In this document: positions 3,657 to 12,952 of the stretch, piece after piece
Layout of the letters: the number at the start of each line of letters is the position of its first letter
Numbering within the stretch: the stretch's first letter is position 1
Program-made: the position numbers and the translations under genes
Source of the DNA: a virus
Virus record (IMG/VR): IMGVR_UViG_3300045988_111617
Strand: one strand, 5' to 3'
DNA length: 64,000 nt
The notes under the pieces: generated by a model
What the model was told of the DNA's origin: nothing
What the model saw: only the letters and a program-made list of their open reading frames with translations
The model's database searches: none

Positions 3657-3671
3657 ATATATGGGGGTGTT

Positions 3672-3845
3672 TTGGTTTTGATTACACTCTATTTGGTAGT
3701 ACCTTATGCAGTAGATGTGCAGCCTACTTTAAAAAAGCACAAACCAATAAATGCTAACAAAGCTAGAAAAACAGTTAGAAGCCTTGTAGATTATATTAAA
3801 TCTGCTATGCAGGCACCAGCAATCTCTTTTGCAGTTGCTGCCTAA
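3672..3845 (+). CDS. possible small secreted/membrane protein with TTG start
   Basis: Open frame from stop at 3654 to TAA 3843-3845 without ATG; TTG at 3672; hydrophobic N-terminus LVLITLYLVVPYA. Confidence 0.2.
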   Translation: MVLITLYLVVPYAVDVQPTLKKHKPINANKARKTVRSLVDYIKSAMQAPAISFAVAA

Positions 3846-4197
3846 CAACTGGCTTTAGTATTTGTGCCTTAAACAAATACTTGGTGGATGATGGGTGGAT
3901 GTTACCACCTGACTTTTGGAGTATTTCAGCAGTAATTGAAATACTATCCTAAGCATATAAATAAAGGTATTATTGAAGGTTTGTAAGACACAGGTTCAAC
4001 TACTCGGACCCTCTGCACAGGAATGTGCAGATGAAAACTGCTTGAACTGCTGGAAAGCTAAGTATCTGTTGAGAAACACATATATGCTAATCAGCATCCA
4101 AGCCTCTGGGAAGACAGAGGAAGGTTCAGAGACTAAGGACACTAAGGTGAGCCTACAGTAAGCAGCACCAAGAACTGGTGATGATATAGTCCAATCT

Positions 4198-4773
4198 CTA
4201 ATTAAAATTAGAAATATATTTTGAAATTAATTTAAGATATTGTTTAGTTTCTAAATCAGACATTGTATTTTTAAGATAATTTATAGGAGTAGATACAAAT
4301 TGTATATTTCCTATGATATATCCTTTAGAAGAATCTATTCTATCTAAAGAAGCCCTATTAGCAATAGGAATATCTTTAGTATGATTAGATGTAGGTAAAA
4401 TAAGAGAAATTCCAGTATATGGACATATTCCTTGCTGATTATTCCAGACTTCTCTGAGATAATCTATAGTCAAATTAAAGTTCTTATACCTCTTTTTAGC
4501 ATTTCTAAAGGTATATTTAAAAGGAGTATCTTCTGTTCTTTTATTCCCTGAAAGAGAAGATATATGCTTTTTACCTTCTTCACTGTTTCTCCAATCAGAA
4601 GTGTGATTAAGATTATGTTTATTAGCATAAAGTACTGAGCAACTTCTGGAACAGAAGTTATGTCTTCCTAATTTTAAATTTCTTTTATACTCTGATTCTG
4701 GTTTAGTAGCTTCACATCCACAATTATCACATGTAAAAGTGATAAGTTTTCTATTTTTCTTATAATTTAGCAT
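4198..4773 (-). CDS. HNH homing endonuclease
   Basis: 191 aa; N-terminal CDNCGC...CSRSC zinc-binding; C-terminal SLDRIDSSKGYIIGNIQFV typical of phage HNH_3 endonucleases. Confidence 0.6.
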   Translation of the reverse strand: MLNYKKNRKLITFTCDNCGCEATKPESEYKRNLKLGRHNFCSRSCSVLYANKHNLNHTSDWRNSEEGKKHISSLSGNKRTEDTPFKYTFRNAKKRYKNFNLTIDYLREVWNNQQGICPYTGISLILPTSNHTKDIPIANRASLDRIDSSKGYIIGNIQFVSTPINYLKNTMSDLETKQYLKLISKYISNFN

Positions 4774-4985
4774 AGTTAATATAATTAATCATGCAAAGAT
4801 AAGAATAAGTCGTGGAATTATCAAGTTAATAATTGAAATATTTAGCGAGTCCTGTCACCTCCACTAATAAATGGGGAAGTAGCATAATAAAAAAACTCTT
4901 GAGCTTTTACTTCTGAAGAGATAGTGTTATTGAGAGTTACTTCAGGTTAATGCATTAGTATCATAAACTAAAGATTGTTTGTTCA

Positions 4986-5001
4986 AATCAAACCTTCCCC
5001 A
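4986..5001 (+). repeat. 16-bp direct repeat aatcaaaccttcccca (left copy) flanking GIY-YIG cassette
   Basis: Exact 16-nt match with 5712-5727. Confidence 0.8.
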
Positions 5002-5068
5002 GGAACATAAAAGTAGAACCTCCACGCGGTATGTTCTGGGTAATGCTAATCTACTTAATATAACAATT

Positions 5069-5713
5069 ATGATTTCTATTTACTGTATTACTAATAAAAT
5101 AAATGGAAAAAAGTATGTTGGGAAAACTCATTTACCTATAACTTCCAGATTTTCCCAACATATCCATGATGCTCTGTTTAGACCTTCTATGAATAGACCT
5201 CTACATAAGGCTATATTAAAATATGGAAGAGAAAATTTTGATATAGAATTGCTATGTACCTGTAGTATAGAAGAATCAGATTCAAAGGAGTCTTATTATA
5301 TCAATAAATTAGGTACTTATAGAAAAGGATATAATGTAACTCTTGGAGGAGAAGGTAAATTTTCTATTGACTATAAAGAAGTAATTGCGGTATATAAATC
5401 TGGAAACAGTATAACAGAAACTTCAAGGATAGTAGGATGTGATAAAAGTTCTGTCTTGAAGATTTTAGATATGTATAATATTAAAAGACATCCAAGATTT
5501 TCTGTTACTTCTGGCAAGAGTAAAGCTAAAGCTGTCTTGCAATATTCATTAGATAATAAATTTCTTAGGAAATTTAACTCCTCAGAAGAAGCAGCTAAAC
5601 ATATTGTACAAGAGAGAAGAATAAAGTATAGCAAAGGGGTGTCTTCTAAAATAGCAAATTGTGCTAAACATAAGACATTCTCAGCATATGAATATAAGTG
5701 GGAGTATGAGTAA
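5069..5713 (+). CDS. GIY-YIG homing endonuclease
   Basis: MISIYCITNKINGKKYVGKT GIY-YIG motif; the ORF-track start at 4979 is TTG and lies upstream of the repeat; ATG at 5069 favoured. Confidence 0.7.
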   Translation: MISIYCITNKINGKKYVGKTHLPITSRFSQHIHDALFRPSMNRPLHKAILKYGRENFDIELLCTCSIEESDSKESYYINKLGTYRKGYNVTLGGEGKFSIDYKEVIAVYKSGNSITETSRIVGCDKSSVLKILDMYNIKRHPRFSVTSGKSKAKAVLQYSLDNKFLRKFNSSEEAAKHIVQERRIKYSKGVSSKIANCAKHKTFSAYEYKWEYE

Positions 5714-6542: not shown

Positions 6543-6742
6543 TGAAAGTAAGAACAAAGAAAGTAATCTTATTTGCACTATGGCTTGTAATAGTATTTCC
6601 TGTTTTTGGAATGCTTCTTTCAGGCTTAAGTGCTCCATCTACCATTACTAATCTTGCCTCAGTGTTGGCAATAGTTGGATTAGTTTTGGTTAGTATAGAC
6701 ACAAAATGTTTCACAAACTTTATAAAAACTAAAAACAAATGA
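6542..6742 (+). CDS. small membrane protein
   Basis: 66 aa, two TM helices. Confidence 0.45.
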   Translation: MKVRTKKVILFALWLVIVFPVFGMLLSGLSAPSTITNLASVLAIVGLVLVSIDTKCFTNFIKTKNK

Positions 6743-7311
6743 GTAAATTTTTCAAATTTATTATGGTTATTGCAGCAGTAACCATGATGGCAATGTCCTG
6801 TACAAGAATCAATGCAGGATATGAGGGTATCAAGGTCAATCTCTATGGAGATAAAAAGGGAGTAGATGATATCACTCTTGTAACTGGTATGGTATGGTAT
6901 AATCCTATCACTACAGCAGTCTATGAATATCCTACATTCATTCAGACTGTAGACTATGAGCCATTTACTATCAATGCAAAGGATGGTTCTCAGTTCACTA
7001 TTGACCCTACTATCAACCTTAACATGATTCCAGGTACTTCTTCTAAGGTATTTGTAAAATATAGGAGACCTATGGAGGAAGTTATAAGGGATGTACTGTA
7101 TACTCATGTCAAGAATGCCTATAGGATTAAACTCAGCAATTATACTACAGATGAGTTGGTATCCAAGAGGGAAGAGTTTGAAAAGGCTACAGAAGATTAT
7201 CTCAGGGAAGTGCTGTTCAAGGAGAACTTTGAACTTGGAGAAATGACTTCAGGTCTTAAGTATCCTGCCTCACTTGAAGCCTCTATTACAGCAAAGAATG
7301 AAGCTAAAATG
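6739..7311 (+). CDS. SPFH/band-7 (stomatin/prohibitin-like) protein, exon 1
   Basis: N-terminal TM segment then SPFH-like region (GIKVNLYGDKKGVDDITLVTGMVWYN...). The ORF-track reading frame runs into intron sequence and stops at 7338. Splicing at the duplicated aaaatg joins it to exon 2. Confidence 0.5.
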
Positions 7312-7444
7312 TATGGTTTCCTAACAAGAAATTGTTAGATAAAAAATATTTCCTTAATTGCTGGAAACTCCTAAGTAATTTATTTACTCATTTGCATAAA
7401 TCAAATATTTTTATTATATTTGTTTTATAAAAATGAAATAAATT

Positions 7445-8146
7445 ATGGACAATCAGCAGCCAAGTACTAATTACAGAAGTATAAAGAAAAATGCTCTAAA
7501 ATACATAGTTTCTATTGGGGAAATCTATGGAGTTTATAAAGTATTATCTGAAGAGAAAATACAAACTTCTAAATGTACAGAAGTTAGATATAGATGTGTA
7601 AATATAAACTCTGGGCAAGAATATCTTAAAAGAGGAAGAGAACTTTATAGAATAAGAGACAGAGTAAATAATAAATTTCAAAATAAAAGACAAGAAGGAC
7701 TTAGAAGGTATTTATATAGAAATTATATGAATAATGCAAGGAAAAGGAAGCATGACTTCTCTTTATCATTTGAGGAATTTGATAATCTTATATCACAGCC
7801 ATGTTATTATTGTGGAGAACCTCCTAAAGAGGTAGATAAAGAGTTCCTTTGTAAAAGAGGGGATAGATTTCAACCCAATATAACTGTAAATGGAATTGAT
7901 AGAAAGAATCCTCTGATTGGTTATCAGTTAGATAACTGTGTTCCTTGTTGTCCTACTTGTAATTATATGAAACATGTCTCTACAGAATCTGAATTTCTCT
8001 CTCAAATAAAGAAAATCTATACTTTTAAAATTAGTAAAGGTTCAACGACTATCCCGAGAGGGAGTACATCACAAGCTAATGGTGATGGAAATGGGAAACC
8101 CTTAACAGATAATACTGAAGGTGAAGATATAGTCTCAACTTTATAG
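7445..8146 (+). CDS. HNH homing endonuclease (intron-encoded)
   Basis: 233 aa; HNH motif GIDRKNPLIGYQLDNCVPCCPTCNYMKH. Confidence 0.65.
   Translation: MDNQQPSTNYRSIKKNALKYIVSIGEIYGVYKVLSEEKIQTSKCTEVRYRCVNINSGQEYLKRGRELYRIRDRVNNKFQNKRQEGLRRYLYRNYMNNARKRKHDFSLSFEEFDNLISQPCYYCGEPPKEVDKEFLCKRGDRFQPNITVNGIDRKNPLIGYQLDNCVPCCPTCNYMKHVSTESEFLSQIKKIYTFKISKGSTTIPRGSTSQANGDGNGKPLTDNTEGEDIVSTL
8099..8134 (+). repeat. 36-nt repeat (33/36 identical to 11857-11892), intron core segment
   Basis: cccttaacagataatactgaaggtgaagatatagtc vs cccttaacagataatgctgaaggtgaagacatggtc. Confidence 0.8.
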
Positions 8147-8208
8147 AAATATAAAGAAGTTTCATAGAAAACTGCATAAGTGTTGCGAACTTATGTGAAG
8201 ATAAAATG

Positions 8209-8424
8209 GTACAGAAGAGTCAGAAGGCACAGAATGAACTTGAACTTGTAAAGGCAGAGGCAGAGAAGATGCTTGTTTCTGCAAGAGCAGAGAAAGAGGC
8301 TAACTTGCTTAGGACACAGGCTCTTACACCTCAGGTGCTTGAACAGATGTGGATAGAAAAGTGGAATGGTGTTCTACCTGTATATGGTACAGTTCCTACT
8401 CTATTCAAAGATATAACCAAGTAG
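8209..8424 (+). CDS. SPFH/band-7 protein, exon 2 (C-terminal coiled-coil)
   Basis: VQKSQKAQNELELVKAEAEKMLVSARAEKEANLLRTQALTPQVLEQMWIEKWNGVLP resembles the AEAEA-rich C-terminus of SPFH proteins; in frame with exon 1 after splicing. Confidence 0.5.
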   Translation, partial: VQKSQKAQNELELVKAEAEKMLVSARAEKEANLLRTQALTPQVLEQMWIEKWNGVLPVYGTVPTLFKDITK

Positions 8425-10263: not shown

Positions 10264-10862
10264 AAATAACAATTGAAACAAATGCCATGATTAGACATGG
10301 CACTTGTATTGGAGAAATATTGGTTTTGCTCGAAATACTTAATGGAGTAAATCATTCCCAGATTATCAATAATCTAATAAAAAAGGGATATATTACATCT
10401 GCAACTGGCCAATCTTTCGTAACTGAAAAGAAATATGCTTTAATGGATAAAGCTAAAGGTTTACTTGAAGATGTTAATTTGGACTCTGTAGATTCTGATA
10501 ATAAGGAGTCTAGAAACATCGAGGAATTAGCAATTAAATTAAAAGAGCTTTTCCCAAAAGGTAAAAAACCTGGTACTACTCAATATTGGGCAGAAGGAAC
10601 TTCTTTGATAGTTAAACGACTTAAGGTTTTCTTCAAAAAGTATGGAGAGTATACTGATGAACAGATATTGTCCGCAGCTGAAAGATATATAAAATCTTTT
10701 AACGGAGATTATTCTTATATGAGAGTGCTCAAATACTTTATATGGGCTGAAAAAGTAAATAAAGCTGGAGAAGTAGAATCAACATCTGATTTACTTACTT
10801 TTATAGAGAATACAGAAGACCTTGACCCTATCAGAAATGATTGGACATCTAACTTGAATTGA
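10260..10862 (+). CDS. hypothetical protein
   Basis: 200-aa ORF. Confidence 0.5.
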   Translation: MKITIETNAMIRHGTCIGEILVLLEILNGVNHSQIINNLIKKGYITSATGQSFVTEKKYALMDKAKGLLEDVNLDSVDSDNKESRNIEELAIKLKELFPKGKKPGTTQYWAEGTSLIVKRLKVFFKKYGEYTDEQILSAAERYIKSFNGDYSYMRVLKYFIWAEKVNKAGEVESTSDLLTFIENTEDLDPIRNDWTSNLN

Positions 10863-10863
10863 T

Positions 10864-11021
10864 ATGGAGTTTTCAGAAGTGTTGCAAGACCTTCAAAGGA
10901 GAAGAGATAGAGTGATGAATGGACTGTGGAACTGTATTCCACTGCCATTTCCAAGATTTAAACAGTTACTTCCTGGATTTGAACAGGGAAAGTACATAGT
11001 GGTTACTGCTAATCAGAAGGT
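10864..11021 (+). CDS. DnaB-like replicative helicase, exon 1
   Basis: ATG 10864; ...LPGFEQGKYIVVTANQKV supplies the first half of the Walker A; the frame stops 3 codons into the intron (TAA 11029-11031). Confidence 0.55.
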
Positions 11022-11097
11022 AAAACCTTAACAATTTTCTTAATCTATTGTATATTTGAATCATTTGTTTTATATTTGCAGTTACAAATTAAAACAT

Positions 11098-11742
11098 ATG
11101 GACAAAATTACAAGAGATTTAAGAAAAGCTGGTATTTATTGTATAGAGAATACTAAAAATAAAAAGGTGTATATAGGAAGTTCCAAAAACATCTATCAAA
11201 GATTATTGAAACATTTTGCCTTATTAAGGCATAATAAGCATCAGAATGGACATCTTCAAAATGCATGGAACAAGTATGGAGAAGGTGTGTTCAGATGGTA
11301 TGTTTTAGAGTTCTGCTCAGAGGATAAATTGACTGAAACAGAACAACTTTGTATAGATTTATTTGGAGCTGAATATAACATAACAAGGATTGTGGAAAGA
11401 AATGTTCTATCAGAAGAGTCAAGAACAAAGCAAGGAAATACAAGGAGAAGGCTTCATCAAGAAGGGAAACTTGAATGGAACTTTAATCCTGTGCCTTTGT
11501 ATGTGTATGATTTAGATGGAAATTTTCTGTTTATAAATCCTTTAGGAGTTAAAGATACAGCAAGTAAATTAGGCATATCTGCATCAAGTATATGCAGAGT
11601 TACAAATGGAACCTATAGTCAATGCAAAGGCTACAGGTTCTCTTACAAACTTGAAAATCTACCTCCTATAACTGTAAACTCTAATAAACAAAATGTAAAA
11701 TACCAGAGATTAAGGACTGCCGTGTCAAAGAGAAATTTTTGA
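11098..11742 (+). CDS. GIY-YIG homing endonuclease (intron-encoded)
   Basis: MDKITRDLRKAGIYCIENTKNKKVYIGSS; start chosen at atggacaa, which is shared with the HNH intron ORF start context. Confidence 0.65.
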   Translation: MDKITRDLRKAGIYCIENTKNKKVYIGSSKNIYQRLLKHFALLRHNKHQNGHLQNAWNKYGEGVFRWYVLEFCSEDKLTETEQLCIDLFGAEYNITRIVERNVLSEESRTKQGNTRRRLHQEGKLEWNFNPVPLYVYDLDGNFLFINPLGVKDTASKLGISASSICRVTNGTYSQCKGYRFSYKLENLPPITVNSNKQNVKYQRLRTAVSKRNF

Positions 11743-11856
11743 TATTATAACACCTGAATATCCTCAGAAGCTAAGTTGGGAAACCAATATGTCAATTTGA
11801 GGAGGCATAGGCTATACCTTGAGTATAGATTCAGCCCCAGAGGCCAGATGCAGGTG

Positions 11857-11892
11857 CCCTTAACAGATAATGCTGAAGGTGAAGACATGGTC
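11857..11892 (+). repeat. 36-nt repeat, second copy (intron core)
   Basis: 33/36 identity with 8099-8134. Confidence 0.8.
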
Positions 11893-11937
11893 CAGACCAC
11901 AAACATTTATTGTGGTAGGGAAACCTATAGTGGTAAG

Positions 11938-12952
11938 AGGTAAGTCAAAACTATGTGATTACCTGTTAGTCTATTCTACTATATTCTTTGCTATGGAACA
12001 TCCAGAGTTCAAGGCAAAGATTCTCTATTTTACTCTTGAGATGAGTCCTAAAGAGAAGTATAATGAGTTCTTATGTCATCTTCTGTTCAGACTTGATGGT
12101 ATAGTCATATCTCCTACAGAGCTCAAGAGCACTGATAAGGACAAGCCAGTTGACCCTCATATCTTTGAACTTCTTAAAAGTGAAAGGTATCAGGCCTATA
12201 TAAGGAAGTTTGAAGAAATGGTGGAATATATAGATACTGACAGAAATCCTACTGGAATAAACAAAAAGTGCAGAGCTTATGCAGAAGAGCATGGTCATTA
12301 CAATTATAAGACAGTCAAGAACAAGAACAAATTGACTGGTGAGGAAGAGGAAGTAAGGATACTTGACCCTACTGAACCTTATACTCCAGATGACCCAGAA
12401 GAGTACAAGATTGTCATAGTGGATAATGCTTCTAACATATCTTTGGAAAAGGGTCTGGACAAGAGGGAATCCATTGACAAACTTTCAAAGCATGGTATTA
12501 CTTTAAGAAATCAGATGCAGTTCATATTTGTGCTTATTCAGCATCAGGCTCAAGCCCAAGAGGGTATTGAGAATCAAAAACTGAACAGGCTTAAACCATC
12601 ATCAGATGGATTGGCTGACTGTAAGACTACCACCAGAGATGCAAATCTTGTGATTGGTCTATACTCACCGTTCAAGTATGGAATACCTGATTTTGAAGGG
12701 TATGACATCAAGAAGTTTAGGAACTATATAAGGTTTATGGAAGTTATTGAAGATAGGGATTATGGTTCAGCAGGAAACATATGTCCATTGTTCTTCAATG
12801 GTGCAGTAAGTACATTCAATGAACTTCCTTTACCAACAGACAGTGCTGGACTTGAGAGTGTCTATGGCTATATAGATACTCTTAACAAACAGAAGATGAA
12901 AAGAAAGGCTAAGTCTTTCTTTATGTATTTGAGAAAAATTTTTAAGAAATAA
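11938..12952 (+). CDS. DnaB-like replicative helicase, exon 2
   Basis: GKSKLCDYLL...ILYFTLEMS aligns with the T4 gp41 / DnaB Walker A and H1a regions (VGKSLGLCSLAADYL...LYISMEMA, from memory). Confidence 0.6.

Follow-up and report, generated by a model that had tools for sequence, protein, structure and literature searches.

A predicted group I intron with a GIY-YIG endonuclease at the Walker A codon of a crAss-like phage helicase gene

A P7.1/P7.2 extension between the 3' strand of P3 (P3') and P8 is the hallmark of group I introns of subgroup IA2, the introns of phage T4 (td, nrdB and nrdD) included, and the open reading frames (ORFs) of the T4 introns are looped out of P6a or P9.1. Inteins tend to sit at conserved ATPase motifs. 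Here, we analyze an insert of 916 nucleotides (nt) in the Walker A motif of a replicative helicase gene in the viral record IMGVR_UViG_3300045988_111617, which is very probably a functional group I intron carrying a homing endonuclease. The window, i.e., the whole stretch of 64,000 nt that was analyzed, stems from a crAss-like gut phage near Kehishuvirus (crAss001; Steigviridae/Asinivirinae). In crAss-like phages, group I introns have been described chiefly in the Delta and Zeta groups, in MCP, PolB, primase and TerL, and alpha-gamma genomes are said to lack such insertions (Yutin et al. 2021, PMC7886860). Inteins prefer replisome proteins (PMC4760082).

In kind, the helicase element is of the textbook type: a phage replication gene interrupted by a group I intron that brings along a GIY-YIG endonuclease. 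It shares with T4 td/I-TevI the position of a group I intron at a conserved-motif codon of a lytic-phage gene essential for replication or nucleotide metabolism, a GIY-YIG endonuclease with a homologous catalytic domain, and an ORF whose 3' end overlaps the ribozyme structure. In contrast to td, the host gene encodes a helicase, P1 comprises 3 base pairs (bp), the ORF is housed neither in P6a nor in P9.1 but in the P1 loop, with the 5' splice site before it and the guide sequence after it, and the 3' domain is distinctive, with ACCAC...GUGGU closing two hairpins. No P7.1/P7.2 was found in the window core: only one nucleotide separates the end of P3' (11856) from the start of P8 (11858), and since this leaves no room for the extension, the core is not of the td (IA2) type. 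The 'T4 td/nrdD-style' RNA architecture attributed to the locus in a preliminary description, made from the letters alone, thus has to be given up.

Judged by general features of IC3 introns, the core seems similar to small introns of the tRNA type (IC3-like): P1 has 3 bp, the guide is followed directly by P2, the J3/4-P4-P5 and J6/7-P7 blocks (GUAGAGACUA...GAAGAUAUAGUCC) are alike, and P7.1/7.2 is missing. Closeness to tRNA-hosted IC3 introns (cyanobacterial and plastid tRNA-Leu(UAA), Azoarcus tRNA-Ile) is also suggested by the fit of the window core, at 141 bits, to a model built largely from phage tRNA anticodon-loop introns (see below). The window intron differs from these in residing in a protein-coding gene and in holding an endonuclease ORF of ~640 nt in its P1 loop.

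With the introns reported by Yutin et al. 2021 (PMC7886860), the element has in common the virus order, the kind of element and its recognition via endonuclease domains in core replication or structural genes. Neither that study nor the PhiCrAssBcn isolate paper mentions a Walker A intron in the helicase of the crAss001-like (Beta/Steigviridae) lineage; in the isolate paper, introns and the helicase both go unmentioned, and the Bastillevirinae intron paper does not mention a helicase. The helicase intron thus adds a member, new or at least not labelled before, to a well-known kind of element, and the Walker A codon of a replicative helicase would join the list of homing sites. Inteins in DnaB-type helicases are likewise mobile, endonuclease-driven and housed in replicative helicases, but they splice in frame at the protein level, whereas the window element has an in-frame stop codon and a ribozyme core.

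The interruption of the helicase gene

The upstream part of the gene is contained in an ORF of 55 amino acids (aa; 10864-11031) that terminates with GKYIVVTANQKVKP before its stop codon. The downstream part is found in the ORF 11870-12952, opened by an ATG at 11870 (360 aa) and carrying GKSKLCDYLL...LYFTLEMS; the ORF list confirms both readings of the preliminary description. Joining T11021 to A11938 yields an in-frame product of 390 aa with the Walker A motif TANQKV/GKSK (A-NQKV-GKS; a slash marks the junction), to which exon 1 contributes A-N-Q-K-V. The interruption falls between the second and third base of the Val codon. The insert, 11022-11937, measures 916 nt; the last base of the 5' exon is U11021 and that of the insert G11937. 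Since positions 11022 and 11938 both hold an A, the DNA alone leaves the boundary ambiguous by 1 nt. Group I introns follow an exon U and end in G; by this rule, we chose 11021/11022 and 11937/11938, which are exactly the boundaries proposed before. Past exon 1, the helicase frame runs into a TAA at 11029-11031, and the ORF within the insert uses another frame.

The spliced protein and intron-less helicases form one gapless alignment over residues 3-382/383 with an identity of 58-68%. In tblastn searches, crAss001 gp85 showed 58.5% identity (residues 3-382) and bajarodcaudo virus 1 showed 68.2% (residues 3-383). A three-way alignment of the window product with these two helicases shows TANQKVGKSK to be invariant and without a gap across the junction, and the junction DNA CTAATCAGAAGGTAGGTAA is the same in the bajarodcaudo virus. 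The spliced product matched 55 phage records by tblastn, and in 49 of these at least 80% of the query is matched at one place. The helicase intron is absent from crAss001, PhiCrAssBcn1-13 and the bajarodcaudo virus. Most relatives possess one uninterrupted helicase gene, and two separately functional helicase genes, named beforehand as a finding that would speak against an intron, were not seen among the homologs. The predicted ligated-exon junction of the window reads CAGAAGGT/AGGTAAGTC, with CTAATCAGAAGGTAGGTAAGTCAAAAC as the junction-spanning sequence, and that of PhiCrAssBcn14, 15, 16 and 18 reads CAAAAGGT/AGG. Judging from the sequence comparisons, the junction assignment is well beyond chance.

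The motif AGGTAA, to which attention had been drawn because both junctions share it, is indeed present at 11018-11023 and 11938-11943. With respect to the splice site, however, it is shifted between the two junctions; it arises from the exon sequence AAGGT/AGGTAAG and has no significance of its own, and we rejected it as a target-site duplication.

Concerning the identity of the protein, a match to PF03796 (DnaB_C) of 25.3 bits (cutoff 27) covers residues 28-101, including Walker A and H1a. Further matches were obtained to PHROG 19 'DnaB-like replicative helicase' (5.5e-10) and PHROG 239 'primase/helicase' (1.7e-11), and homologs are annotated as replicative DNA helicase in public records. A sequence search of the PDB gave no significant match. 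Based on the sub-threshold Pfam and the PHROG matches, the label 'DnaB-like' seems reasonable.

Ribozyme core, guide sequence and endonuclease

At its gathering threshold, Rfam returned only a transfer-messenger RNA (tmRNA) and no group I match in the whole window. With permissive filters on 10800-12100, the full RF00028 model aligned to 11696-11915 with 23.5 bits (E = 0.0018; gathering score 50). At gathering, RF00028 also gave no match in the ORF-less, tRNA-hosted members of the intron family described below (L048, L013, L045, L057, L058 and L051), and the sub-threshold score therefore points to low sensitivity or a coverage gap of the model and is not evidence against an intron. 

The core was thus assessed within its own family, using an alignment of 23 sequences (A1, MAFFT). 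RNAalifold alone recovered P2, P3, P4, P5, P6 and three 3' helices from this alignment, with 24 of 36 pairs being compensatory. These helices were combined with the P7 pseudoknot, P8 and P5a into an explicit structure of 50 pairs, in which 92.7% of cells are paired, compared to 33-41% in slid-partner controls. Changes on both sides affect 31 of the 50 pairs (shuffled mean 20.9), a value reached in none of 500 shuffles, and the window copy forms canonical pairs at each of the 50 consensus positions. Furthermore, a covariance model (R1) of the 22 other cores, from which the window was left out and which was trimmed to P3-omegaG, matched the window at 11749-11937 with 141.1 bits and a roughly calibrated E of ~1e-32, ending exactly at the terminal G. 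This omega-G, G11937, is invariant in 23/23 aligned members. The covariance-model check suggested in the preliminary description thus gave a sub-threshold match with RF00028, while the family model R1 gave a high score. Taken together, covariation and the R1 score indicate, at the level of sequence, that the helicase is split at Walker A by a real group I intron of 916 nt, as had been supposed.

The individual elements are listed in Table 1. Each of the seven P2 pairs varies on both sides across the family, and each is a canonical pair in the window copy. The pattern used for the family search prescribed the 3' strand of P7 and the 5' strand of P9.0, save one P7 position left free; it is this position (column pair 190/234) that shows a joint switch from U-A to C-G in 2 of the 23 sequences, the window being one of them. 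Beside the bulged A11841, the pair G11842-C11892 occupies the position of the guanosine-binding site in P7, as judged by a sequence-level test. P8 reaches 60.9% paired cells, with a poor MAFFT register for distant members. J8/7 (UGAAGACAU) agrees with the RF00028 consensus UgAAGAUAU. The string gacatggtcc...accac (11884-11900), which the preliminary description had picked out as a piece of a group I core, corresponds to J8/7 together with the 3' strand of P7 and the 5' strand of P9.0.

Table 1 Predicted features of the interrupted helicase locus (positions in the window)
Feature	Position	Strand	Remarks and basis
Helicase exon 1	10864..11021	+	52 codons + 2 nt, end ACU GCU AAU CAG AAG GU; ORF list, alignment
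Group I intron, 916 nt	11022..11937	+	starts with A after exon U11021, ends with omega-G G11937; junction, RF00028 (sub-threshold), covariation, model R1
Intron 5' leader, first part of long P1 loop	11022..11098	+	blocks TTAATCTATTG and TTGTTTTATATTTGCA kept in relatives, just upstream of endonuclease start codon; four-way intron alignment
GIY-YIG homing endonuclease ORF, 214 aa, I-TevI-like	11099..11742	+	frame differs from helicase; PF01541, PHROG and I-TevI match
Internal guide sequence CU-GCC	11717..11721	+	YUGCC conserved in all helicase-site copies, just 5' of P2
P2 hairpin, 7 bp	11725..11742 (11725-11731 with 11736-11742)	+	holds ORF stop codon 11740-11742; RNAalifold
P3	11751..11856 (11751-11756 with 11851-11856)	+	6/6 pairs compensatory, 97.8% of cells paired
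P4	11761-11766 with 11798-11803	+	99.3% paired
P5/P5a	11770-11792	+	inside P3 span
P6/P6a	11804-11836	+	inside P3 span
P7 pseudoknot helix	11840..11893 (G11840, then 11842-11846, with 11888-11893)	+	A11841 bulged; 100% of cells paired
P7 5' strand	11840-11846	+	enclosed by P3
P8 hairpin	11858..11879 (11858-11861 with 11876-11879)	+	starts 1 nt after P3'; pairs canonical in window
3' domain	11896..11937	+	ACCAC/GUGGU helix (11896-11900 with 11930-11934) around two hairpins, then A-A-G, omega-G 11937
Small hairpin in 3' domain	11904-11914	+	2/2 pairs compensatory
GAAA-tetraloop hairpin in 3' domain	11915-11928	+	4/5 pairs compensatory
Helicase exon 2	11938..12952	+	start A/GGU AAG UCA, giving (V)GKS, then H1a-like LYFTLEMS and rest of RecA-type core

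The guide sequence is predicted to pair with both exons. P1 would consist of G11719-U11021, C11720-G11020 and C11721-G11019, and P10 of U11718-A11938 and C11717-G11939. A natural compensatory variant is provided by the relative L043, where a Val-to-Ile change makes the exon end in GAU and the guide reads GUC. Moreover, copies with CCU as guide flank have a 3' exon AGG, and in L011, whose intron of this family sits at another helicase site (NPTG/), the exon ends in GGU/A. As the guide GCC lies downstream of both the 5' splice site and the ORF, the endonuclease ORF is placed in the P1 loop. Its final codons overlap the guide sequence and P2, and its stop codon lies in the 3' strand of P2. An alternative, local P1 hairpin of AAGGU (11017-11021) with ACCUU (11025-11029) exists in the window only and pairs the splice-site U with A; relatives read AGCUA or AUAUUUAG here. 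We rejected it in favor of the conserved distal guide with its compensatory variant. Upstream of the ORF, Bacteroides-type promoter motifs (TAnnTTTG) occur at 11051 and 11071; with 76 occurrences in the window against 76.5 expected, the motif is not enriched over chance, so a promoter role is only a guess.

The ORF inside the insert encodes a GIY-YIG protein, as had been described. It matched PF01541 with 45.2 bits (cutoff 22.6) and, down to 8e-23, homing endonuclease families of PHROG. Among solved structures, the catalytic domain of I-TevI (1MK0/1LN0, E = 1.3e-9) comes closest to it. Compared with I-TevI, it retains GIY (12-14), YIG (24-26), R34, the Glu of ...TETEQ... and N94, and the catalytic motif is thus intact by sequence. 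For the C-terminal module, weak sub-threshold matches were obtained to an I-HmuI NUMOD-like profile (19.6 bits, cutoff 27) and to NUMOD1 (14.7 bits, cutoff 22.8). Most likely, the endonuclease cuts intron-less helicase alleles of co-infecting phages near the insertion site, whereupon repair would copy the intron in.

Alternatives to a spliced intron and a proposed pathway

Several points weigh against a functional intron and have to be set against the evidence above. P1 has 3 bp only (4 if A11022-U11718 also pairs) and would have to form across ~700 nt, and covariation in P1 amounts to one independent event (L043). Since the end of the ORF overlaps the guide and P2, ribosomes could interfere with folding. 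At the helicase locus, RF00028 stays below its gathering score and is absent from the whole-window E-value scan. The invariance of P7/P9.0 carries no weight because it was imposed by the search pattern, and the E-values of R1 are rough because the calibration was shortened. Furthermore, the finding that the intron is more similar among relatives than its exons (see below) could in part reflect structural constraint and not transfer. Finally, our reading builds on DNA and not on RNA, and it is from this that we infer splicing of the helicase transcript.

On these grounds, in particular the RF00028 score, the very short P1 and the DNA-level evidence, the insert could be viewed as a decayed remnant that no longer splices, with the helicase being a pseudogene or replaced by a helicase of the host or of another phage. 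We consider this improbable: the window copy keeps every consensus pair and fits the family model at 141 bits, both exons have stayed open and conserved, with 58-68% aa identity to uninterrupted helicases, the ORF of the endonuclease is likewise undamaged, and the same arrangement recurs in many complete genomes, including deposited isolates. The low RF00028 score is shared by the ORF-less family members.

Alternatively, a free-standing homing endonuclease gene might split the helicase into two genes whose polypeptides reassemble without RNA splicing, like the genes of T4-like phages that are split by homing endonuclease genes. Public records do list helicase fragments and a 'homing endonuclease', and the ATG at 11870 could serve as a start for the second fragment. 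The break, however, lies within a codon inside the P-loop (ANQKV/GKS), and exon 2 has no conserved start: ATG 11870 is located in the ribozyme core (P8/J8/7), and the annotated starts of the relatives are downstream of GKS. Such a split would also leave unexplained why ~220 nt of non-coding sequence show strong covariation and guide complementarity to both exons, and we regard it as very improbable. A reading as intein, group II intron or translational bypass, although DnaB-type helicases are classic intein hosts (PMC4760082), is effectively refuted by the layout of frames and stop codons and by the RNA structure, i.e., by the in-frame stop at 11029-11031 with an internal ORF in another frame, by the lack of a group II match or reverse transcriptase in the Rfam and Pfam scans, and by a length of 916 nt, far beyond any known bypass, in a sequence that fits a group I core.

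For a functional group I intron, the following pathway may be proposed. The helicase gene would be transcribed as one pre-mRNA, in which the 3' ~220 nt of the intron would form a compact ribozyme comprising P2-P9 and the P3/P7 pseudoknot. The guide GCC (11719-11721) would pair with exon GGU (11019-11021) across the ~700-nt P1 loop holding the endonuclease ORF. An external guanosine would then attack after U11021, and the freed exon 1 would attack after the terminal G11937, with P10 (CU, 11717-11718) aligning the AG of the 3' exon. The product would be an mRNA for the 390-aa helicase.

The intron family and further introns in the window

Homologous inserts at the same helicase codon were found in cr112_1 (L001), cr111_1 (L002) and PhiCrAssBcn14-16/18 (L003 being PhiCrAssBcn16), and the 3' ~200 nt of the intron are highly conserved in the cr112_1, cr111_1 and PhiCrAssBcn16 copies. 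PhiCrAssBcn14-16/18, whose intron is 77% identical to that of the window, are deposited as phage isolates with Bacteroides intestinalis DSM 108646 as host. As these carriers of the intron are deposited isolates, a split helicase gene is compatible with growth, and they offer a workable system. In the public records, cr112_1 (NC_055881.1) and cr111_1 (NC_055880.1) have the helicase annotated as a truncated coding sequence (CDS) starting downstream of Walker A, and PhiCrAssBcn16 (OQ221551.1) has three separate 'replicative DNA helicase' CDSs; all three list the intron ORF as a gene of its own and lack an intron feature. Our analysis therefore amounts to a correction of annotation: in the RefSeq/GenBank records of several crAss-like phages, deposited isolates included, an essential helicase is broken up into fragments that lack the P-loop, next to a stray endonuclease, and the real gene would be one spliced ORF.

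The window intron and the cr112_1 copy share 76.8% identity, while the flanking exons share only 55.7% and 62.9%. The same Walker A codon is also occupied in distant helicases (L042, L050, L056 and L060), whose exon 2 protein identity is 33-46%. Two additional helicase sites were observed in relatives. One, at ~aa 160 after NPTG, holds an intron of the same family in L011 (5897-7309, with two ORFs) and L073. The other, at ~aa 288-292, is occupied in L003 (PhiCrAssBcn16, 4180-5372) and L049, and a 'hypothetical protein' is annotated there between helicase fragments. The pattern of presence and absence, the identities and the shared and extra sites fit endonuclease-driven homing, and we infer from these comparisons that the helicase intron homes.

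A 24-nt pattern taken from J8/7-P7-P9.0 retrieved 72 viral contigs. Members of this family interrupt helicases, further protein genes and numerous tRNA genes, the latter also at the U/AA site of tRNA-Leu(UAA). Cutting after the equivalent GUGGUA(A/U/C)G restored ARAGORN tRNAs in 19 of 26 tRNA-hosted loci tested; the ARAGORN scan of all possible 5' splice sites is too permissive and was used as support for the 3' site only. Exon ends read CUU/A in tRNA-Leu and GGU/A at two helicase sites. As the Rfam group I model misses a phage intron family so widespread that one 24-nt motif finds it in 72 viral contigs, the intron load of gut phages is probably under-counted. One contig, L030, holds a family member at 577-770 and a different group I intron at 2334-2589, which passes gathering with RF00028 (72 bits); at least two intron types are thus found on this contig.

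More tentatively, these introns might form an undescribed, Rfam-invisible lineage of phage group I introns derived from IC3, with the homing endonuclease gene in the P1 loop and repeated moves between tRNA or tmRNA genes and protein genes via small changes of the 3-nt guide. If so, crAss001-like (Beta/Steigviridae) phages, reported as essentially insertion-free, can be intron-dense. Moreover, since the ORF overlaps the guide and P2, any one transcript would serve either for translation of the endonuclease or for splicing of the helicase, but not for both.

Of more interest as leads are the invisibility of this family to Rfam and the number of introns near the helicase: the first 12 kb of the window contain at least four group I introns (helicase, tRNA-Leu, tmRNA and SPFH), one of them in a tmRNA gene. 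This gene (3664-4863) comprises exon 1 at ~3664-3996, an insert at 3997-4845 (~849 nt) in the T-loop and exon 2 at 4846-~4863. The insert has a group I-like core with an R1 match at 4036-4242 (33.7 bits, E ~1.5e-6), and the Rfam tmRNA match in the window reaches 48.1 bits with its 3' end missing. Removing the insert (exon end ACAGGUU, insert end UAUUUAG) restores the T-arm ACAGG-UUCGAGU-CCUGU and the acceptor CACCUCC. ARAGORN made no call on the unspliced sequence and, after removal of 3997-4845, reported a tmRNA with the tag ANKARKTVRSLVDYIKSAMQAPAISFAVAA followed by a stop. The relative L024 has an uninterrupted tmRNA scoring 71 bits. Just downstream of the tmRNA 3' exon, 4979-5713 encodes 244 aa with a GIY-YIG-like N-terminus (ISIYCITNKINGKKYVGKT...). 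Judging from its sequence, this ORF may be a free-standing homing endonuclease; tblastn gave no similarity between it and the endonuclease of the helicase intron.

The tRNA-Leu(UAA) gene (~100-900) appears to be split at the classical U/AA anticodon site by an intron of ~685 nt of the same family, with an R1 match of 51.2 bits (E ~9e-11) and a core at 670-847. Its 5' exon ends near 162 and its 3' exon starts at 848. ARAGORN found no tRNA in the raw ~100-900 sequence and a tRNA-Leu(taa) once 163-847 was removed. Between the 5' splice site and the guide/P2, there is room for an ORF, which would give a layout as in the helicase intron.

Finally, an SPFH/band-7 (prohibitin-like) gene at 6739-8424 is split by a group I intron with an HNH-type ORF. 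The locus consists of an ORF at 6739-7338, the HNH ORF at 7445-8146, an RF00028 match at 7924-8156 (40.3 bits, E = 8e-7 in the whole window) and an ORF at 8206-8424, and its core type differs from that of the helicase intron. The two SPFH halves align as one piece with the uninterrupted SPFH gene of cr128_1 at 100% coverage and 59.9% identity, and similarly with those of IAS virus and PhiCrAssBcn phages.

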